Shown one piece after another: positions 2,386 through 11,276 of a DNA stretch of 38,954 nucleotides. The position numbers and the translations under genes are program-made. The stretch comes from Nanobdellota archaeon. Its GTDB lineage: Archaea > Nanobdellota > Nanobdellia > Woesearchaeales > JAHJEM01. Under the pieces are notes generated by a model. That model ran no database searches, was not told the origin of the DNA, and saw nothing but the letters and a program-made list of their open reading frames with translations. The stretch is from assembly GCA_018825425.1 (NCBI GenBank), contig JAHJEM010000067.1, forward strand, positions 1 to 38,954, read 5' to 3'. Positions within the stretch are counted from its first letter, which is position 1; the number at the start of each line of letters is the position of its first letter.

Positions 2386-2471
2386 GGGTTATAGCTATGT
2401 GACATAATATTTAAAGGTTTCGAGGGAAGTTATCAAAAACCTTTAAAAACAACTCACCTTTTACTAACTTT

Positions 2472-4226
2472 ATGTCAAATATAAGAAGTCCAATAGTGTC
2501 TGTACTGGGTCACGTAGACCATGGGAAGTCAAGTATCCTTGACTCAATCAGAGGGAGCAATATCCTGGCCACAGAAGCAGGCGCGATTACCCAAGCTATT
2601 GGTGCAAGTATAATCCCTTTGGATATAGTCAAGAAGAAGTGTGGTCATCTGCTTGAGACCTTAGGTATGAAATTTACCATACCTGGCCTGTTATTCATAG
2701 ATACACCTGGGCACGCAGCCTTTACCTCCTTGAGAAAGCGAGGTGGAAGCCTTGCTGACATTGCCATAGTCGTGATTGATATAAATGAAGGATTCAAGCC
2801 TCAGACTGTTGAGGCAATTGAAATTTTGCGTGCATGTAAGACACCTTTTATAATTGCCGCAAATAAGATAGATCTTCTTCCTGGATATCGAAAAAAGGAT
2901 GACCAATTTCTAAAGGACCTTAGTCAACAGGATCCAAAAGTTCAAGCACTCATGGACACACGTATTTACGAGCTTCTTGGAAAACTGCATGAACAGTTCA
3001 GTCTTGAATGTGACCGTTTTGACAGGGTTGATTTCACTAAACAGATTGCAGTTGTGCCAGTGAGTGCAAAACAGAATGTTGGTATTCCTGAGCTTCTAAT
3101 GGTGCTAACAGGAATGGCCCAGAAATTCCTGGAAAAGAACCTTGATATAGATGTAGACGGTTTTGCATCAGGAACAGTCCTTGAAGTAAAGGAAGTAAAG
3201 GGCATGGGTACAACACTGGACCTGATAATATTTGATGGAACTCTAAAAGTCAATGACATAATAGTTATTGGTGGTGTGGAAGAACCTGTGGTGTCTAAGG
3301 TAAGAGCACTTCTGATGCCTGCTCCTTTGAGTGAGATGAGAGATAAGAAAGCCAAGTACAAACAATGTAAAGAAGTGGTTGCGGCGTGTGGTGTAAAGGT
3401 CAGTGCTCCTGACATAAAAGAAGCAGTTGCAGGTATGCCCCTAAAATCTACATCTAAGGAAAACCTAGAACAGGTAAAAAACCAGATAAGAAAAGAGGTT
3501 GAAGAGGTCATGATTGAGACAGATAAGGATGGTATTGTAATTAAGGGTGATACACTTGGCAGTCTTGAGGCCATGATCAAGCTTCTGCGTGAAAAAGGAG
3601 TGAAAATACGACGCGCAACAGTTGGTGAAATAACCAAAAAAGACATTTCAGATGCAGAATCTGCCTTTGAAAAGGATCCTCTTCAATCGGTCATCCTGGG
3701 TTTTAATATACCTGAAGTAAAATCTACTGAGAGGGTCAAAATCATAATCAGTGATATCATATACAAAATGCTTGAAGATTATATAAAATGGGTTGAGGAC
3801 GAGAAAAAAGTGCTTGAAGCAAAGGAACTGGACAACTTGGTTCGTCCTGGAAAATTAGAGGTCCTAAAGAATTGTACATTTAGGCAGAGCAATCCATGTA
3901 TCATGGGAGTTGAGATACTTGCAGGCGTATTCAAACCAAACACACCTCTTATGAAGCATGGAAAACATATAGGTCATGCAAAGAGCATGCAATGTGACAA
4001 TGAGAGCATTTCGCGCGGTGAAAAAGGAAAACAGTGTGCGCTTTCCATTCCTGAGGCGACAGCAGGCAGGCAGATTGAGGAGCAGGACATCATATATGCA
4101 GATGTTCCTGAAGAGCATTTCAGAAAGATGAAGAAGCTTGCACAGTACTTAAAGGAAGAGGAAAAGCAAGTGCTTCGAGAGATCGCAGAGATACATCGGA
4201 AGGACAAACCCCTTTGGGGAATATAG
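2472..4226 (+). CDS. infB: Translation initiation factor aIF5B (IF-2)
   Basis: GHVDHGKS, EAGAITQAIGA, DTPGH, NKID, DTLGSLEA and FRQSNP motifs; 584 aa is typical of the archaeal form. AAAACCTTTAAA BRE/TATA ~25-30 nt upstream. Confidence 0.97.
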   Translation: MSNIRSPIVSVLGHVDHGKSSILDSIRGSNILATEAGAITQAIGASIIPLDIVKKKCGHLLETLGMKFTIPGLLFIDTPGHAAFTSLRKRGGSLADIAIVVIDINEGFKPQTVEAIEILRACKTPFIIAANKIDLLPGYRKKDDQFLKDLSQQDPKVQALMDTRIYELLGKLHEQFSLECDRFDRVDFTKQIAVVPVSAKQNVGIPELLMVLTGMAQKFLEKNLDIDVDGFASGTVLEVKEVKGMGTTLDLIIFDGTLKVNDIIVIGGVEEPVVSKVRALLMPAPLSEMRDKKAKYKQCKEVVAACGVKVSAPDIKEAVAGMPLKSTSKENLEQVKNQIRKEVEEVMIETDKDGIVIKGDTLGSLEAMIKLLREKGVKIRRATVGEITKKDISDAESAFEKDPLQSVILGFNIPEVKSTERVKIIISDIIYKMLEDYIKWVEDEKKVLEAKELDNLVRPGKLEVLKNCTFRQSNPCIMGVEILAGVFKPNTPLMKHGKHIGHAKSMQCDNESISRGEKGKQCALSIPEATAGRQIEEQDIIYADVPEEHFRKMKKLAQYLKEEEKQVLREIAEIHRKDKPLWGI

Positions 4227-4297: not shown

Positions 4298-4765
4298 ATG
4301 CAAAAACTAAAGATTCTCAACAGCAAGGAAGCAAAAAAAATTTATTCTCAATTAGATGATCAATTCGGTTTCTCAAAGAAATTAGATTGTACTTTTCTTG
4401 TTAATACCAAGCGCAAAGTATATATGGTTTCAAAGGACATAGGAAATATTGATATGGATAATCTTAGAATCGATAGCATTGGTTTGTATTTTGGTACAAT
4501 CTATGACGATGGATTTAGAGTTACAATTGAGGGTTCCCAGATTATAGGGCCAGATTCCACAAAGAACATCTTGAAATTAGAAGAAGAAAATCTCTCTAAT
4601 TACATCAAGGGTATGGATTTGGATATAGAAGATGGTGAATATGGAGCGCCAGGATATTACTTGATAAGCAATGGTAAAGATTTCTTCGGATGTGCAAAAG
4701 TGACAACCAATAAGATCATGAATTTTGTGTCCAAAGCAAGAAGATTAAGGGTTGTCAATGAATAG
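4298..4765 (+). CDS. NIP7/RsmF-C-terminal-like pre-PUA/PUA RNA-binding protein
   Basis: Pattern 'SIGLYFG...FRVTIEGSQIIG...KG.D...G....K.....MNFVSKARR' resembles archaeal stand-alone PUA-like ribosome-biogenesis proteins. Confidence 0.7.
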   Translation: MQKLKILNSKEAKKIYSQLDDQFGFSKKLDCTFLVNTKRKVYMVSKDIGNIDMDNLRIDSIGLYFGTIYDDGFRVTIEGSQIIGPDSTKNILKLEEENLSNYIKGMDLDIEDGEYGAPGYYLISNGKDFFGCAKVTTNKIMNFVSKARRLRVVNE

Positions 4766-4782: not shown

Positions 4783-5193
4783 TTAATGTGAGTTTGCATA
4801 ACGTCGTTGTCCACCTGACAATGCCTCCTGGAGTCGGGCTTGAAGGTATGCATACGCAGTTGGACCGACAGATTGTCTGGCAGCATCCCTTTCAAGTGGA
4901 GCCATCCTTCCACAGATATTCTCTAGAAGTGTGTTAACAACATCTCTTCCTAATCTCTGACCTCTGTCTAGCAATAGGTACCTTGTTGGTTGGCCTTGAC
5001 TTTGGGTGTCATCATCAATTTCATAGAAAAAGGCTCCAAACTTGGTCAAAAGATGAACCGTCGCATCAATTGTGCCCTCTGCAATGTGGATGTCTGCTAC
5101 AGGATCCAAGTCGGGCCGCGATCTTCTTTGAAATAGTGGTATGACTTTTCTGCCAAGTTTGCTTTTTCCACCATAGTTATCTATGCTTATCAT
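4783..5193 (-). CDS. Hypothetical protein downstream of the RSH-like pair
   Basis: 136-aa ORF with its own TATA-like element (TTTATAAAT at ~5217-5225). No recognised motif. Confidence 0.6.
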   Translation of the reverse strand: MISIDNYGGKSKLGRKVIPLFQRRSRPDLDPVADIHIAEGTIDATVHLLTKFGAFFYEIDDDTQSQGQPTRYLLLDRGQRLGRDVVNTLLENICGRMAPLERDAARQSVGPTAYAYLQARLQEALSGGQRRYANSH

Positions 5194-5256
5194 TGTGAAT
5201 TGGAAATGAAATGTGATTTATAAATATTTTCGCTTTAAATATAGGAACACTCTTTA

Positions 5257-6441
5257 TTATAGGAATCTGAATAGGTCATATGGCTTTCTTCCAATAGTTA
5301 ATACTTCCGGACTTCTGTGGAATATATTGTTATTGACTAGCCAGTTACGCACTGCTTTTTCATGTCCGTTAAAATTTCTTTTGTTGTTTCGTACTTTCTT
5401 GAATAGATAGTCTGGATGGGCCAAGGGTGGGGCGTGCTGCAAGTAATGCTCCTCTTCTGTTGTCATCTGAACCTCGATTGCAATCCCGCTAGGCAGCAGA
5501 CCTGGTTGAAGTTCTTCTGTTGTAAAGAAATCATTAATAGTCTGAGCAGTGTATAGTGGTTCAGTGCCTTCAGGAGGTGGAAGGAAAAGATTTCCATCAC
5601 AATCCGGTACTTTTATTGCTTGGTGCTGCAATGCTTGATGCATTCTTGCTTCAAATGGTCTTAGGTTGTTAGGATTTGCGACTTTAATATATTCCATTGC
5701 TGCATTGAATTGTTGTCTTGAATCTTGATTCATGAAACTATCTAGATAATCATATATGCGATGTGCTCTCCAATCCCCTTCTTTCTCACTCTTGGTCACA
5801 ATCATTATCCGATATAAATCCCAGACAGGATCAACAAATCCATCTGGTCCTTGTCCACTCTGTCGTAACTCACATAATCTCTCTGCAATCTTACCTGCTA
5901 GTCTGCTTCCATTCTTTAGATTGGCATTTATCTGATATATGTGGTGGTCAATTCCCCTGAACTCGTTGTTGACCAGTACAATGTCTCTAACTTTGCTGTG
6001 TTGCGCGCAGGGTGGATAATAGAATTTGGGTTGTCCACTTTCTGGATCTACTGCGCCTAGATGACTTGCAATGACTTCACTTTCGTGAATGTAACCAGTA
6101 TTTGTTTGCTGTGCTATGCTGACTACAATAGGGGGAATACAACTATCACAGTATTGATGTGTATGAAGATTGGGTGAAAGATCAACTTGGGGAATTCCGT
6201 TTGATGCTTGTGTAATTGTGGGAAATAGTTGCGATCCCAAATATGAATCAAATAAGAGCTCTCCGTGTTTAATGTCCTCGCGGAAAACAGTTCGTAATTC
6301 TTCAGTTCTATGGCCGTATTTGTCTTCTAGTGCTGCATAGACTTCCTTTTCACTCTTACCGACCAATTCAAGTATGGTTTGCTCTAGCTCACTTGCTTGC
6401 TGTCGTGCCTCTATCCCATTGAATAGGTGTGCAAAAATCAT
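5257..6441 (-). CDS. Divergent RelA/SpoT-type synthetase (nucleotidyltransferase) domain protein, SAS-like
   Basis: Ordered RSH synthetase-like motifs: NLKNGSRLAGK (cf. RxKxxxSxxxK), WDLYRIMIV (cf. DlxgxRii), EYI...HQALQ (cf. DYI...YQSLH), IEVQMTT (cf. EVQIRT), LAHPDYLFK (cf. AHxxYK). Confidence 0.65.
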   Translation of the reverse strand: MIFAHLFNGIEARQQASELEQTILELVGKSEKEVYAALEDKYGHRTEELRTVFREDIKHGELLFDSYLGSQLFPTITQASNGIPQVDLSPNLHTHQYCDSCIPPIVVSIAQQTNTGYIHESEVIASHLGAVDPESGQPKFYYPPCAQHSKVRDIVLVNNEFRGIDHHIYQINANLKNGSRLAGKIAERLCELRQSGQGPDGFVDPVWDLYRIMIVTKSEKEGDWRAHRIYDYLDSFMNQDSRQQFNAAMEYIKVANPNNLRPFEARMHQALQHQAIKVPDCDGNLFLPPPEGTEPLYTAQTINDFFTTEELQPGLLPSGIAIEVQMTTEEEHYLQHAPPLAHPDYLFKKVRNNKRNFNGHEKAVRNWLVNNNIFHRSPEVLTIGRKPYDLFRFL

Positions 6442-6443
6442 TA

Positions 6444-7982
6444 TTATTCCAACAGAGAATATCCTCCGATTTCCCTCTCATCATTCATGTATAAATCCAT
6501 AGCTAATAATTCTGCGATAATTCCTTCTTCTAATAGCTTAACAGGTCTTCCTATAGGGAACTTCGGCACTTCATGAATGCCTCGGGGATCTGGTTCTGTG
6601 AATCCTTTTTTCTCTCTGACACCTCTGAGCATCCCATAAATAATCCCATTGAATCTTCTCCAGGGTTCACGTCGGAGAAGCACAGTATCTGTCTCAGGCT
6701 CTCTTGCTTCATCCATTATGCCTGTAATATATGCCATTTTGAGATGAGGAACCAGTGTTTCAAAATAGTCTCTTGGGAAATGAAATTGCTCATCACTGCC
6801 TGCTTGGAGCATATAATTGTTGTTGTTTTCTCGTTCTTCTATTGTAAAATAAAGTGCTGCTCTTCGGACTGGCATTATTGTTTTAGTATAGAATCGTCTA
6901 TCTCTTATCAACCCAAGTCTGTTTGCAACAACCAACTCATTTGCAAAATATGTTTGCTTATAGAGCATTTCAGCTCGTTCTTGGGGAGAGAATGCTCCTT
7001 CGCCTTGAAGCAAGATGTCTGGAAAGTCTATTGCAGAACTTCCCCCATCTAATACCTTATCCAATAGCACTATGTTTTGAGTATTTGTTATCTGTCTTTT
7101 TGATGGGTGTTGTTGTCTGCCTTTTCCTAAATCTTCACTTATAAGAGGACTTAAATACATTAGAGTATCAACTAGTACATCCTGATCAAAGAATCTGGGT
7201 GTATAGCTATCCCATGGAATTCCTGGCGGTCTGGTCAATATTGCGTCTGCTGCAAGGATTGCTTGGACCTTTAGCATAATTGCGCGTTCCGTCGGAACAG
7301 AATTCTGGACCAGTTGATGCCTAAGATCCATCATTGCTCTTAAGAAATAGTATGCAGGATGGTTTCTATCAAAGCCTAAGTGATCTATGGCTATATCATC
7401 TGGTACTGCAATTGCATTTTTTCCTTCTCCTGCATCATGGAGAATTGTGGCAGCTTCAGCAGTAATTCCTAAGATTGGATTGTATTTATCAATATTGTAC
7501 TGCTGCCTGACAATTCCTGCTGCGGCCAGAAGACCTAAAGCATGTTCAACCTCTAATTTCCTACCACCTTTACTTGTGCCTGTTGGTGTGGCTCCTTTAC
7601 GTTTATTCAAACCTTCTCTTTCTATCAATAATTCCAGCAATTGTTTTCTAAGAACAGTCTCATCCCTTCCCAAATTGCGTGTAGGGACAAAGTTTGCCAC
7701 TTCCTGCAATGTCTCAAGAGTATCATTCAAAAGAGTTGGATTGTAGTCTGAATATTTTCTTCTTTGATCGTGTTTATGAGATATTTGTGTATGTGCTTCG
7801 GTTACTAATTTTCTTATTAGATTTTTGCGTCCATTAAGATTAAATGCGGTTCTTACTTGAGAATAAAGTGGTTTCTCATCAGCTCTAACTTCGAATGGAG
7901 GCATTCCTTTGTCTCTGCGATAATCTGCTAGTTCATCATTTAGATGTACAATTATCTGATCAATACTGGAATACTTGAGCAT
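6444..7982 (-). CDS. HD-domain protein resembling RelA/SpoT (Mesh1/SAH) hydrolases
   Basis: EVEHAL, ATILHDAGEG (cf. AxLHDxxED), ILTR...Y (cf. LTK) and LLDKVLD (cf. VKLADR) in the expected order. The stop codon lies 2 nt before the next ATG. Confidence 0.6.
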   Translation of the reverse strand: MLKYSSIDQIIVHLNDELADYRRDKGMPPFEVRADEKPLYSQVRTAFNLNGRKNLIRKLVTEAHTQISHKHDQRRKYSDYNPTLLNDTLETLQEVANFVPTRNLGRDETVLRKQLLELLIEREGLNKRKGATPTGTSKGGRKLEVEHALGLLAAAGIVRQQYNIDKYNPILGITAEAATILHDAGEGKNAIAVPDDIAIDHLGFDRNHPAYYFLRAMMDLRHQLVQNSVPTERAIMLKVQAILAADAILTRPPGIPWDSYTPRFFDQDVLVDTLMYLSPLISEDLGKGRQQHPSKRQITNTQNIVLLDKVLDGGSSAIDFPDILLQGEGAFSPQERAEMLYKQTYFANELVVANRLGLIRDRRFYTKTIMPVRRAALYFTIEERENNNNYMLQAGSDEQFHFPRDYFETLVPHLKMAYITGIMDEAREPETDTVLLRREPWRRFNGIIYGMLRGVREKKGFTEPDPRGIHEVPKFPIGRPVKLLEEGIIAELLAMDLYMNDEREIGGYSLLE

Positions 7983-8117
7983 CCTGACGTGGAGGAATGA
8001 ATTGGCTTTTTTAAATGTTTAGTAGTGTCACTACTGATTTATGGTCAATTACTGCAGGGTTTTCGGTTTATAAATGATATTGATTGATTTTAACTGGTTT
8101 TAGAAAAAAAGGGGTTG

Positions 8118-8726
8118 CTAGGATGTTTTTTGGGATATATACACTCTAAATCCGCCTTTTTTAGCCACTACATCTACATTCCCGAAAATCTCGTGCATAT
8201 ATTCACCGAGAACCTTACCACCCTTATTGTGTCTGGCAACAAGCTGAAACCATCCCTTCTTTTTCAAATGAGAGAAGGAATCATTAATCATCTTAAAACA
8301 CAATTTTCTGCCAGCAGCATAAGGAGGATTAAGAAGTATGCAATCAAATTCATCAGGAATATTGCTAAAAATGTCTGAAGAAATTACAGTGGTATCAAGC
8401 TTGAGCTTATTTGCATTCTTTTCTGCTAACTCTATTGCCCGTTCGTTGACATCACTCATCCAGACCTCTAGATCTGGACTGATTCGTTTCATAGCAAGAC
8501 CGACAACACCATATCCACATCCAAGATCAAGCAATTTCCATCTTTGCTCAATTTTTGCGTTCTCTATCAGAAGTTTAGTTGCATTGTCCAGTTTGTCTTT
8601 GCCAAAGATTCCAGGTGCACTATACAATTCAAAATAGACCATCTCTCCCTTTCGGTTGAACCGGATAGGAATTTTCTTATTTGCACCTTTAGAACTCTGT
8701 TTTGGAGAATAGTAATGTTCAGTCAT
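8118..8726 (-). CDS. Class I SAM-dependent methyltransferase, RsmC/MTS (YbxB-like) family
   Basis: N-terminal EHYYS, PGIFGKDKLD, LDLGCGYG, SDVNERA, NPPY and KKGGFRV. Confidence 0.9.
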   Translation of the reverse strand: MTEHYYSPKQSSKGANKKIPIRFNRKGEMVYFELYSAPGIFGKDKLDNATKLLIENAKIEQRWKLLDLGCGYGVVGLAMKRISPDLEVWMSDVNERAIELAEKNANKLKLDTTVISSDIFSNIPDEFDCILLNPPYAAGRKLCFKMINDSFSHLKKKGWFQLVARHNKGGKVLGEYMHEIFGNVDVVAKKGGFRVYISQKTS

Positions 8727-8747: not shown

Positions 8748-11276
8748 CTATGGCTTTAATTCTTCGAGCTGTTTCTTAAACTTCAAGACTGTGTTTAACA
8801 CAAAATGTTTCTGGGTCTTTAGAATTTTTGCAGCTTCCTCCAGTACATCACCAGAAAATGTCTCTTGACTGGTGAGTGTAAAACACTCTTTTTGGATTGG
8901 TTTTTTCTTTTTATGTGCTTTGGTGGCCTGCTTCCAATGGCCAAATAGTTCTTTTGCCCTGCCAGGTATCTGATCAGGATTACATTCAAGGATTTTGGCA
9001 ACTTCAGATTCTTGTTTCCCCTTAGTCTGATCGTGTAGAGTGGCTGCATTTCCTGCCACAAATTCAATTCTTATGACACCATCCTGTATTTTGGTGGTAC
9101 GGATTATCTTGATCTGTTTGATGTCACCCGTGACACTCAAGTGAGTGCCTCCGCATGCTTCCACATCAAAGCCGTCTATATTCACAATGCGTAGTCTTTT
9201 TCCAGGTACAGCTCCACCTTGGTAAAGCCTAAATCCATATTCCTTTTCTGCAATATTTCTAGAAACAAATGTTGATATTACAGGTCTGTTATCTTTAACA
9301 ACCTTGTTTGCCAAATCTTCGATTTCATTAACCTGTTTCTCTGTAAGATTATCATAATGTGTGATGTCAAGGCGTGCTTTTTCAGGAGTCTTTGCAGCTC
9401 CTGCCTGCCAAATGTGTTCTCCAAGTACGCGACGAGAAGCTCCATTTAGAATATGGGCTGCCGTGTGATGTTGAGCCAGCTGGTATCTTCTCTGAAGGTC
9501 TATCTTGCACACGACTTTGTCTCCTTTCTTGAAATTGGGCTTGCTTTCGAGCTCATGGAGTACGACATTGCCTTGTTTGAAGACTTGGATAACCTTGATG
9601 CCATTCATCTCTCCAATGTCATGCATCTGACCGCCGCTTGTGGGATAGAATGCGGTCTCATTGAGTGCGACCTTGTTTCCGTCAACAATCTTCTCTACAA
9701 ACCCATTAAAGGCCACAAGATCCCACTTCGTGTAATAGAGGATGCCTGTTTCAGCAACCTCGTCCAGATTGTAAAGTTGCTCCTTCTTGGTCTTGTACTT
9801 GGATTGTTCGTCCTTTTCGTGTTTTTCAGAAATTTTAGCATAGAATCGTTCAGGCAACTTGATATCAATGCCTTGTTTTTTGGCTTGCTTCTGTATTTCT
9901 TCAGGAAGAATACCTTGAGAATCATACAGCTCCAAAAGTTTTGACTCTATCTGTGGGGCCTTACTTGTCCGGACCAGTTTTGAGATGAGCTGAGTATTTC
10001 TTTTCTTGTTTTCATCATGCTTTCGCTTTTCAACAGCCAGGATTTCCTTGACCAGATCAATTTGGGAAGATAGTTCTGGATACTGTGGCTTGAGATAGTG
10101 TGCGTGGAGTTCAATTACCTTGTCAAGGTTCAATTCCCAATCATACTTTTCAATGAATGATTGGATCCTCCTGAATAATACCCTCAGATTATATCCTCCT
10201 CCAACATTGCTTGGAAGAGCTCCATCACTTAATGCATATAGAAGGGTTCGTGTATGGTCTGCAATAGAATATGCTGCAGCAAGAGGGAGCACGTTCTCTT
10301 TTAGCGTGTTTGTATCTACACCAAGGGTCTTAGCAACCTCTGTCCATTGTTTATCCACATCATCAATCTCATCAATATTCAGGGTTCCAGCCAGATGGAC
10401 AAATTTAGAGATGAGTTCCTTATCTTGCTTGATATTAAGTTTTGATAAAAGATACTTCATGACTGTGGGAAATGTAACATCATAAAGAGTTGGACTTCCT
10501 GACAAGAACCATGCGCATCTTTCCTGTCCCATACCCATGTCCAGGACCTTTTGCTTGAGCTCTTTTGGGCCACTAGGTGCACTTTCGAACATCATGTATA
10601 CTTGGTTTCCGATCTCTACTCCGCCAGAGAAAAATTCAAGGCAAGGACCAAAGTTGCCACCGCCAGCCCACGCGTCCTCATGGATGACAAATTCTTCTGG
10701 CTTAAGCTTCATTCCTTGGATATACCAATTGTAATAGTCTTGGAACAGTTCTTCTTGATTGAACTTATCTTTAGGCAGAAATGCGTGTTGGCCAATCATG
10801 GTAAAACCAGTGAGATGGCCTCCTGTAATTCCAACATTATCAGTATCATTGAATCGTATGCAGGTCTGAGGTACCACAAGCTTCTCTGCAGGAGGCTCAA
10901 CCTCTCCAGAAACCACATATGGCTGGAAATCTGCAATGCTTGCAAGTGTGAAGTGCATTGAGGGGTTCCATCGGGCTACTGTGGGATATCTCTTTATGCT
11001 TGTGTAGCCTTGTTTCTTGAATAGTTTCTCAAAGCGACGCCATACCTCAATAAAATCAACATTTTCCCTCTTTTTGCCTATAAATGAGTATCTGCCTTCA
11101 CATTCAGAGTCTCCGCATACCTCTCTTTGCTTAGTAGACCAGAATGCTCTATGACAATTCGTGCATTTAAGGCGTGAGAATCCTAATTCCTCGAGTTTTT
11201 TGACTGGAAAAAAGGTCTTGTATTCCGTTTCCAATCTTTTCTTGAGATTGGCTTTGAGTTCCTTATCAGATGTCAT
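8748..11276 (-). CDS. alaS: Alanyl-tRNA synthetase (archaeal type)
   Basis: N-terminal CxxC...C Zn site, ASIADFQP, CIRFND, DMGMGQER, IADHTR, GGGYNLR, FYPTSGGQ, and editing motifs HHTAAH and CGGTH. Confidence 0.97.
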   Translation of the reverse strand: MTSDKELKANLKKRLETEYKTFFPVKKLEELGFSRLKCTNCHRAFWSTKQREVCGDSECEGRYSFIGKKRENVDFIEVWRRFEKLFKKQGYTSIKRYPTVARWNPSMHFTLASIADFQPYVVSGEVEPPAEKLVVPQTCIRFNDTDNVGITGGHLTGFTMIGQHAFLPKDKFNQEELFQDYYNWYIQGMKLKPEEFVIHEDAWAGGGNFGPCLEFFSGGVEIGNQVYMMFESAPSGPKELKQKVLDMGMGQERCAWFLSGSPTLYDVTFPTVMKYLLSKLNIKQDKELISKFVHLAGTLNIDEIDDVDKQWTEVAKTLGVDTNTLKENVLPLAAAYSIADHTRTLLYALSDGALPSNVGGGYNLRVLFRRIQSFIEKYDWELNLDKVIELHAHYLKPQYPELSSQIDLVKEILAVEKRKHDENKKRNTQLISKLVRTSKAPQIESKLLELYDSQGILPEEIQKQAKKQGIDIKLPERFYAKISEKHEKDEQSKYKTKKEQLYNLDEVAETGILYYTKWDLVAFNGFVEKIVDGNKVALNETAFYPTSGGQMHDIGEMNGIKVIQVFKQGNVVLHELESKPNFKKGDKVVCKIDLQRRYQLAQHHTAAHILNGASRRVLGEHIWQAGAAKTPEKARLDITHYDNLTEKQVNEIEDLANKVVKDNRPVISTFVSRNIAEKEYGFRLYQGGAVPGKRLRIVNIDGFDVEACGGTHLSVTGDIKQIKIIRTTKIQDGVIRIEFVAGNAATLHDQTKGKQESEVAKILECNPDQIPGRAKELFGHWKQATKAHKKKKPIQKECFTLTSQETFSGDVLEEAAKILKTQKHFVLNTVLKFKKQLEELKP

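Follow-up and report, generated by a model that had tools for sequence, protein, structure and literature searches.

What does a pair of adjacent archaeal genes encode if the first reads as an HD hydrolase and the second as a nucleotide pyrophosphokinase? This question is raised by contig JAHJEM010000067.1 of a Nanobdellota archaeon (assembly GCA_018825425.1, order Woesearchaeales), of which we analysed positions 1–38,954, hereafter the window. Alarmone ((p)ppGpp) signalling is central in bacteria. The initial annotation of the window had described an HD protein with the motif LHDAGEG, followed 2 nt on by a protein with synthetase motifs, and had proposed that they form a split, very divergent hydrolase and synthetase pair of the RelA/SpoT homologue (RSH) type. 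Here we find that the two genes, which we call H0 and S0, are fairly likely to be the two halves of a very divergent split RSH pyrophosphokinase/hydrolase module, one that is chromosomal and vertically inherited in an order of DPANN archaea; this assessment comes from comparisons of sequences and of gene neighbourhoods.

H0 and S0 correspond to the two domains of long RSHs

Both genes are on the reverse strand. H0 is an open reading frame (ORF) of 512 amino acids (positions 6444–7982), and S0 is an ORF of 394 amino acids (5257–6441). The stop codon of H0 occupies 6446–6444 and the ATG of S0 begins at 6441, leaving the gap of 2 nt that had been reported. As a reference for both proteins, we used a profile of 30 long RSHs of approximately 640 amino acids from the same phylum.

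Alignments of H0 with its relatives matched the HD domain of this profile in all three versions. An alignment of four sequences confined to the genus (A2) gave an hhalign P value of 4e-4, and an alignment of five sequences that included the homologue H4 of a sister genus (A5) gave 1.4e-8; in each case, none of 50 column shuffles reached the score. Adding members found beside the NIP7-like gene in other genomes produced a 14-sequence alignment with a P value of 1.2e-15 and a probability of 98.6%. Consistent with these results, a ten-sequence H profile (A7) had 22 matches at E ≤ 1 among all PDB sequences, and 20 of these were hydrolase domains of RSH, Mesh1 or small alarmone hydrolase (SAH) proteins. 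Rel, RelA, SpoT and Mesh1 were at the top (best E 6.8e-15; Mesh1 2e-10 to 5e-9), and a (p)ppApp hydrolase matched at 3e-5.

The residues that define the HD domain are also present. H0 carries the motif ILHDAGEG, which contains H182, D183 and E186, and these residues are invariant in A7 together with R128, H147, K309 and D312, as are the same columns in A5. In the 14-sequence alignment, which was made automatically and does not keep R128, H147, H182–D183, E186 and K309..D312 are conserved in 13–14 of the 14 members. The conserved columns of H0 align with the H..HD..E and KLADRLHN motifs of long RSHs, such that the metal ligands H...HD...D are found in H0 and in 13–14 of 14 members. Judged by the invariant columns and by the alignment with long RSHs, the HD core spans approximately residues 120–330 (6993–7625). 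As the initial annotation had pointed out for both proteins, a large N-terminal extension precedes the core, of approximately 125 amino acids in H0, and there are a further 190 or so after it. A structure search with the Atlas was uninformative for H and gave no lead. On the profile and residue evidence, H0 is a homologue of the RSH-type HD hydrolases.

The corresponding evidence for S0 builds up from a weaker start. An alignment of the genus-level S proteins and one further protein, P0006 (A4, five sequences), matched the SYNTH domain of the long-RSH profile with hhalign P values of 0.015 and 0.012, and 1 of 60 column shuffles reached the score. The register is that of the enzyme family, placing PIWDLYR on IYDLxAIR, IEVQ on IEIQIRT and LxHxxY on AAHWxYK. 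With three more members obtained by iterated search, a ten-sequence S profile matched the SYNTH region with a P value of 6.8e-7 and a probability of 92%, and the register of the S family also agrees with the GRxKxxxSxxxK, DLxAxR, EIQIRT and AAHWxYK motifs of RSHs. When an S profile (A6) was run over 401 genomes, there were three weak matches outside the family: two fell exactly on Syn1–Syn2 of long RSHs (genomes G167 and G463) and the third was an S-like gene beside NIP7 (G362). Against PDB sequences, another S profile (A8) had only two matches at E ≤ 1, RelSeq and a Rel, at Syn4/5 and Syn1/2.

Within S0, the SYNTH core (approximately residues 168–350, positions 5392–5940) was delimited by reading the residues, their conservation and their register with RSHs. 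It contains K176-NGS-R180-LAG-K184, D208-L209, E323-V-Q325-MTT and A-H342-PD-Y345. The synthetase motif series that had first been read from S0 therefore holds for the spacing of its two lysines and for the DL, EVQxxT and AHxxY elements, but not for the serine of K...S...K: K176 and K184 have the canonical K-x3-S-x3-K spacing with arginine (R180) in place of serine, which is present in five of ten family members. S0 keeps K176, K184, D208, Y297, E323, Q325, H342 and Y345. Among the ten members, K184 and D208 are conserved in all, K176 and H342 in nine, Y297 and Y345 in seven and E323 in six (an acidic residue in eight). One congeneric protein, S1 of genome G001, has the full RxKxxxSxxxK motif, and the S protein of the sister genus represented by G005 lacks K176 and H342..Y345.

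Structure prediction points in the same direction. The AlphaFold2 (AF2) model of S0 had a mean predicted local distance difference test score (pLDDT) of 52 and a predicted template modelling score of 0.55. In a Foldseek search with this model, ranks 1–10 were all small alarmone synthetases (SASs; E 0.2–0.4), and in a VIA comparison with 48,161 chains ranks 1–4 were again SASs (6fgk, Z 5.4; 5dec, Z 5.3; 6ewz, Z 4.9; 8vx3, Z 4.8), with CapRel at rank 6 (Z 4.6). RelA_SpoT clusters were also listed for the Atlas's own S model, at TM scores of 0.32–0.44. The ranking obtained with the predicted S0 structure agrees with a hypothesis stated beforehand, and the scores taken alone would not be significant.

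The extension of approximately 165 amino acids before the SYNTH core of S0 includes a Cys/His motif of the form CxxC...CxxH (C98-x2-C101 ... C145-x2-H148; positions 5998–6150), following an N-terminal helical part. In the family alignment, C98 is conserved in ten of ten members, C101 in nine, C145 in eight and a histidine or cysteine at position 148 in seven. The AF2 model has strands there, at low confidence, and the motif is a possible zinc ribbon, with zinc binding predicted. The S proteins are acidic (isoelectric point 5.6–6.1), and no signal peptide or hydrophobic segment was seen (maximum 19-residue hydropathy 0.65–1.27). Taken together, the profile, motif and model comparisons identify S0 as a homologue of RSH synthetases. 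The H and S profiles align with the HD and SYNTH domains in the right order, so the earlier description of the HD–SYNTH order of long RSHs laid out as two genes, and of a split and very divergent pair, is borne out at the level of profile matches to both domains.

Family models and protein databases pass over the pair

None of Pfam, NCBIfam, PADLOC or PHROGs had a meaningful match for H0, S0 or the small ORF downstream of them, T0, or for the members of the family alignments. PF04607 (RelA_SpoT) did not match S0 or any of the five A4 members at E ≤ 10, PF13328 (HD_4) did not match H0 or any of the five A5 members, and the gathering score was reached in neither case. Homology to the two domains is seen when family profiles are compared with long RSHs, and not in Pfam searches with single sequences. 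Elsewhere in the source genome, which is 82% complete, PF04607 had no match at E ≤ 10, and the sole HD_4 match was on another contig (C48, E 0.009).

Searches of larger collections gave a similar picture. A word-index search of 5.8 billion proteins with H0 and S0 returned only the window's own proteins, and the same search with the S alignment as query returned these and P0005, a protein recorded at its source as 'hypothetical protein [Nanoarchaeota archaeon]'. A full phmmer search of S0 against 1.84 billion representatives found five proteins, including S0 itself. Neither phmmer with H0 and S0 nor the genus-only profiles yielded more than chance matches among PDB sequences.

Several observations weigh against reading H0 and S0 as RSH enzymes. 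No single-sequence model search recognized either protein. With genus members only, the evidence for S is marginal (P of roughly 0.01–0.02); the larger H and S profiles rest on transitive membership, their bridging sequences having been admitted at E ≤ 1e-3 in a small database. The predicted model of S0 is poor (pLDDT 52), and neither a Z of 5.4 nor a Foldseek E of 0.2 is significant alone, such that only the ranking speaks. For H, the AF2 model is all-helical at a pLDDT of 38.8, which makes it unusable. At the residue level, S0 lacks the arginine of RxK, the serine of Syn1 and the arginine of EIQIRT, and the catalytic glutamate is replaced in four of ten S members (by lysine in G001); because of these replacements, some S copies may be inactive. 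In H0, the HD motif is followed by EG rather than ED, the second residue being glycine, and there is a serine where 90% of members have the asparagine of DxxxN.

The cluster holds one chromosomal position beside translation genes

To the other side of the pair lies a gene that proved to be a conserved synteny anchor. A NIP7-like pre-PUA/PUA gene (4298–4765, forward strand; PF17833 E 3.7e-5, above the cut-off; PF13636 E 4e-5, below it) converges on the cluster, and upstream of it is a gene at 2472–4226 (forward strand) that we take, from a reading of the ORF sequence rather than a family scan, to be the translation initiation GTPase aIF5B, part of the same conserved neighbourhood. T0, an ORF of 136 amino acids (4783–5193, reverse strand), stands between S0 and the NIP7-like gene. 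The order aIF5B, NIP7-like gene and then, convergent on it, T, S and H was found in all four genomes of the genus. The gap between H and S is also 2 nt in one of them (G001).

Within the genus, the cluster has diverged much further than its neighbours. Identities are 69–77% for aIF5B and 41–56% for the NIP7-like protein, compared with 23–33% for H, 25–41% for S and 18–38% for T, which indicates that the H–S–T cluster evolves fast, although the lineage that carries it is itself divergent. Among 60 relatives, S0 matched only the three other genomes of the genus, at 26–27% identity, and none of the 57 others; H0 matched two of those three, with three further matches at a chance level (E 0.1–0.17).

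Two sister genera share the cluster. In one of them (G005), H is followed by S5 (484 amino acids) and then by the convergent NIP7-like gene and aIF5B, with no third ORF. In the other (G004), a short contig contains a HAD-hydrolase gene, H4 (494 amino acids), S4 (772 amino acids, overlapping H4 by 4 nt) and T4 (118 amino acids), and the contig ends before NIP7. The same HAD gene is also found upstream of H in G002 and near H in G001 and G003. S4 matched PF04607 below the cut-off. Its match to the RSH profile is interrupted by an insertion of approximately 270 amino acids, with P values of 3e-5 and 1.6e-3 for the two parts. Compared directly with the S family, S4 gave an hhalign P of 0.25, and MAFFT misaligns it. 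The link between S4 and the S family is one of position and of its own RSH match.

A small ORF in the same orientation follows S in G001, G002, G003 and G004. T0 had no significant similarity to these third genes (best E 0.1), and it is therefore linked to them by position only. No relatives of T were found among 115 ORFs downstream of NIP7, and T had no similarity to the C-terminal half of the long-RSH profile (P 0.33).

We then asked how far the arrangement extends. We located the NIP7-like gene in 145 of 151 genomes (143 of 149 without two unpublished genomes). It was seen as a neighbour of the cluster or of its S-like genes in G001, G002, G003, G005, G514 and G362, the last two belonging to other families (S-like genes in f72 and f153, respectively). 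In a non-random sample of 40 NIP7 neighbourhoods of up to 15 kb each, made up of the 27 best NIP7 matches outside the genus (leaving out the unpublished G369) and 13 picked further down the list, we compared the three ORFs downstream of NIP7 with the iterated H and S profiles and the RSH profile. H- or S-like genes were detected in 11 of the 40 loci (L097, L099, L101, L102, L106, L108, L112, L117, L131, L132 and L134), which come from ten family codes; the member at L101 is weak and its HD motif degenerate. Together with G514 and G362, the association with NIP7 covers at least 13 family codes. In G044 and G028, H and S converge on NIP7 as they do in the window. With the four genomes of the genus, G004 and G005, these cases establish that homologues of the two genes occur together. 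At the remaining 29 loci no H- or S-like gene was detected, which may reflect absence or divergence beyond reach. In most of these 40 loci, aIF5B either adjoined NIP7 or lay close to it.

Variations on the arrangement were also observed. In G007, an H-like and an S-like gene flank the NIP7-like gene, between it and aIF5B, as a rearranged cluster (L102; 555–1835(+), 1824–2282(−) and 2386–3546(+)). In G098, an ORF of 612 amino acids converges on NIP7 (L131:7892–9727) and matches the RSH HD domain with an E of 1e-7 over positions 36–78 and 130–157; it is long enough for a fused H–S form. Around the cluster in the genus, an open-ended ORF with a YVDDF motif, by eye like a reverse transcriptase of group II intron or retron type, lies at a contig end in G002 (L012:11369–12031), upstream of H2 and its HAD gene and approximately 400 nt from the latter. 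A P-loop ATPase of 644 amino acids, HerA-like by eye, is encoded approximately 3.3 kb upstream of H1 in G001 (L011:2625–4559). The translation of one ORF in G514 holds a run of X (L058:2014–2961).

The pair coexists with canonical long RSHs

It had been assumed at first that RSH genes are sporadic in archaea. This does not apply to the present group. Of 301 genomes sampled from the phylum, 150 had a PF04607 match, mostly in ORFs of approximately 640 amino acids, a count that fits the figure of 41.7% of Woesearchaeota given for RelA/SpoT in the relevant passage of a published paper (PMC8407392). In the window's own family, no long RSH was found among the five genomes searched, with G004 having only S4.

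Two ways of relating the pair to a long RSH were considered and rejected. One was that the split pair replaces a lost long RSH; at least four genomes (G088, G115, G098 and G028) have a long RSH on another contig as well as a NIP7-linked H or S. The other was that the long RSH occupies this locus in relatives; tblastn searches with eight window proteins (aIF5B, the NIP7-like protein, a methyltransferase, alanyl-tRNA synthetase, T0 and three other neighbouring ORFs) found no match in 30 long-RSH loci. As long RSHs and NIP7-linked H or S genes coexist, the split pair is a separate lineage and not a replacement. A further ORF of interest was observed in a genome of the same genus: in G003, a 364-amino-acid ORF (L045:735–1829, contig C94) has an N-terminal half that is NUDIX-like by eye and a later part that matches PF04607 at E 1.2e-20, which makes it a hydrolase–synthetase fusion distinct from the H/S pair.

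Layout and reliability of the locus

Upstream of H0, on the same strand, are a small-domain methyltransferase gene (8118–8726) and the alanyl-tRNA synthetase gene (8748–11276). The spacer of 135 nt between the methyltransferase gene and H0 (7983–8117, reverse strand) contains, by eye, a T7 run (8104–8110) directly after the methyltransferase stop codon and an A/T box, TTTAAAAAA (8007–8015), approximately 29 nt before the ATG of H0. The 63-nt spacer between S0 and T0 (5194–5256, reverse strand) contains, again by eye, a TATA-like element, ATATTTATAAAT (5215–5226), and A/T boxes thus stand approximately 27–29 nt before the ATGs of both H0 and T0. This arrangement of T7 run and A/T boxes suggests an archaeal terminator and TATA box, and hence a separate, possibly leaderless transcript for the cluster. 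A scan of the locus for promoters and terminators of bacterial type gave nothing above background, fewer than the shuffled expectation. Between the end of T0 and the end of the convergent NIP7-like gene there are 17 nt.

G+C content is even across the region (0.39–0.41). The codon-usage log-odds are positive for H0 (0.27), S0 (0.19) and T0 (0.17) in the annotated frame only, compared with a mean of 0.28 for 17 window genes, and T0 is accordingly coding-like. The stretch is identical, without an indel, in contigs from two sequencing runs of different studies, one of which may be the source sample; because the contigs of the two runs do not differ, they confirm the break between H0 and S0. H0 and S0 are each present as a single copy in their own genome. 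An archaeal origin of the locus fits the aIF5B and NIP7-like neighbours and the family member that its source names as a Nanoarchaeota archaeon.

Proposed function of the pair and alternative explanations

H has kept its metal ligands, and S the residues that bind phosphate and Mg, which points to an active couple of hydrolase and pyrophosphokinase. As a SAS-like pyrophosphokinase, S0 would most likely take the beta-gamma pyrophosphate from ATP and place it on the 3'-OH of a purine nucleotide, its predicted substrate, to yield a (p)ppGpp- or (p)ppApp-type alarmone. H0, as a metal-dependent HD hydrolase, would be expected to remove this group again. A single transcript probably covers both genes, and coupled expression is suggested by the 2-nt gap here and in G001 and by the 4-nt overlap in G004. 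The Cys/His motif of S, the long tails of H and perhaps the small third ORF, for which any role is conjectural, may regulate H0 and S0. Since the relatives keep these genes at the same chromosomal spot, an inherited cellular function is favoured over a mobile toxin or defence cassette, and the cluster is probably an inherited nucleotide-signalling module. The S proteins are acidic and have no hydrophobic segments, and for this reason a cytoplasmic nucleotide enzyme fits better than an RNA-targeting toxin or a secreted effector.

We also put forward a wider proposal, which we regard as speculative and as having a minority chance of being correct. It is that a second RSH-derived pair, missed by annotation, is present in many families of the order, coexists with the long RSH and has become fixed beside the genes for aIF5B and the NIP7-like ribosome-biogenesis factor. 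Translation or the production of ribosomes would then be adjusted through an alarmone, perhaps one other than (p)ppGpp, which the pair would both synthesize and degrade. If this were true, archaea would have an alarmone system of their own.

The strongest competing explanation, which we consider unlikely, is that the locus is a toxin–antitoxin (TA) or abortive-infection module resembling FaRel, in which S would be a toxic SAS producing (pp)pApp or modifying the CCA ends of tRNA by pyrophosphorylation, H a type IV antitoxin hydrolase and T a small type II antitoxin. The order of an HD gene, a synthetase gene and a small ORF, with gaps of 2 and 63 nt, equals that of an operon in Cellulomonas marina as described in PMC7229694, and for this reason a logic like that of toxin and antitoxin keeps a small probability. 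The fast evolution of H, S and T relative to aIF5B and the NIP7-like gene would also suit such a module, as would the place of CapRel among the structural matches of S0. Against it, the cluster is a single-copy locus that holds one chromosomal position across genera and families, including all four genomes of the genus; no phage or mobile-element genes lie beside it in the window, and it has no PADLOC or PHROG match. H and S are approximately twice the size of known toxic SAS (toxSAS) and SAH proteins, and T0 has no detectable kinship to the third genes of relatives. TA systems typically have a patchy, mobile or prophage-linked distribution. This is not the distribution seen here, where the genes occupy the same place beside the NIP7-like gene and aIF5B in the genus, in G005, G514 and G362 and in 11 of 40 neighbourhoods. 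Moreover, toxSAS proteins that target tRNA are generally basic, whereas S is acidic. The proposal in the initial annotation of a TA module, a defence module or an effector against a host cell accordingly finds no support beyond gene order.

A different possibility, and an improbable one in our judgement, is a housekeeping system acting on RNA ends, in which S would add a pyrophosphate to the 3' end of tRNA or of some other RNA and H would take it off again, so as to restrain translation or the assembly of ribosomes, with a functional tie to the NIP7-like RNA-binding protein and aIF5B. Its attraction lies in the linkage to these two genes, which is conserved within the family and recurs in 11 of the 40 neighbourhoods sampled, and in the Cys/His motif of S, a kind of motif that is common in nucleic-acid binders. 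RSH-fold enzymes that pyrophosphorylate tRNA do exist, according to published abstracts. Set against this are the acidity of the S proteins and the orientation of the cluster, which in all loci of the family is convergent on NIP7 and not co-transcribed with it; in small genomes, synteny may also reflect descent only.

We rate as slightly less probable again that H and S are catalytically dead relics, that is, the decaying or re-purposed, binding-only remnant of an RSH, with a non-enzymatic role or on a drift to loss. Their extreme divergence, the absence from S0 of three canonical basic or serine residues, the replacement of the catalytic glutamate in four of ten S members and the loss of K176 and H342..Y345 in G005 could be taken in this sense, as could the intact long RSH in at least four genomes with a NIP7-linked H or S. 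However, no genome read has an interrupted or shortened frame, and codon usage is coding-like. Drift would not be expected to spare the metal ligands of H, kept in 13–14 of 14 members, or K184 and D208 of S, kept in ten of ten, and this weakens it as an explanation. Finally, that the proteins are effectors secreted by an episymbiotic archaeon against its host cell, for which nothing can be cited beyond the fast evolution and the way of life usually attributed to DPANN archaea, is highly improbable given that there is no N-terminal signal-like or hydrophobic segment, that no secretion genes lie beside the cluster and that the hydrolase partner is encoded in cis, as in an intracellular cycle.

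Comparison with known systems

The closest published counterpart of the gene order is the ATfaRel–FaRel–AT2faRel operon of C. marina. According to Jimmy et al. 2020 (PMC7229694), this operon has three genes with FaRel in the middle; FaRel is neutralized by ATfaRel, the SAH encoded upstream of it, and to a lesser degree by the gene that follows. SAS and SAH genes are also said there to occur in prophage regions. As far as this description goes, a hydrolase, a synthetase and a small third gene follow one another at tight spacing in the same order as H0–S0–T0. By contrast, the C. marina operon is bacterial and toxin–antitoxin-like, whereas the H–S–T locus keeps to one chromosomal position across genera and families, its proteins are much larger, and no defence model matches it. 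A literature search, with supplements outside its reach, listed no paper that appeared to describe the H/S pair.

At the domain level, the H family shares the H..HD..E..K..D..N series with the HD_4 domain (PF13328) of Rel/SpoT, with Mesh1 (5vxa, 3nr1) and with the (p)ppApp hydrolase (7smg). H0, at 512 amino acids, is much longer than SAHs of approximately 180, and it differs from the HD_4 domain of RSHs by an insertion of approximately 120 amino acids between HD..E and K..D, by EG in place of ED and by the lack of a Pfam match. Similarly, the best structural matches of the S0 model are the small alarmone synthetases RelQ and RelP (SAS1/SAS2; PDB 5dec, 5ded, 5f2v, 6fgk and 6ewz), and S0 shares with these and with the SYNTH domain of long RSHs (PF04607) the order and register of K-x3-S-x3-K, D-L, Y, E-x-Q and H-x2-Y. 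It differs from them in its N-terminal extension with the Cys/His motif, in having no Pfam match, in the three canonical residues that are gone and in the spacing between Syn2 and Syn3, which is approximately 90 amino acids compared with approximately 40 in the long-RSH profile.

The long RSHs of DPANN archaea (approximately 640 amino acids; HD, SYNTH and TGS) resemble H0–S0 in having HD before SYNTH and in occurring in the same phylum. Unlike H0 and S0, which are two genes with a stop codon and 2 nt between them, they are one polypeptide and are recognized by Pfam at E values of approximately 1e-40; they were not beside NIP7 or aIF5B in the 30 loci tested, whereas the H/S pair is. If the pair is active, its two proteins, which are small and can be expressed, would allow a study of which nucleotide is produced by an archaeal RSH and which processes that nucleotide controls. 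The pair also makes clear that surveys relying on family models undercount RSH enzymes. Our comparisons show that the bacterial-type long RSH known from DPANN genomes is not the only one: in one archaeal order there is a further, separate RSH lineage. It is divided between two genes, bears extensions and a Cys/His insert, is too divergent for Pfam and keeps to a single chromosomal site next to translation genes.

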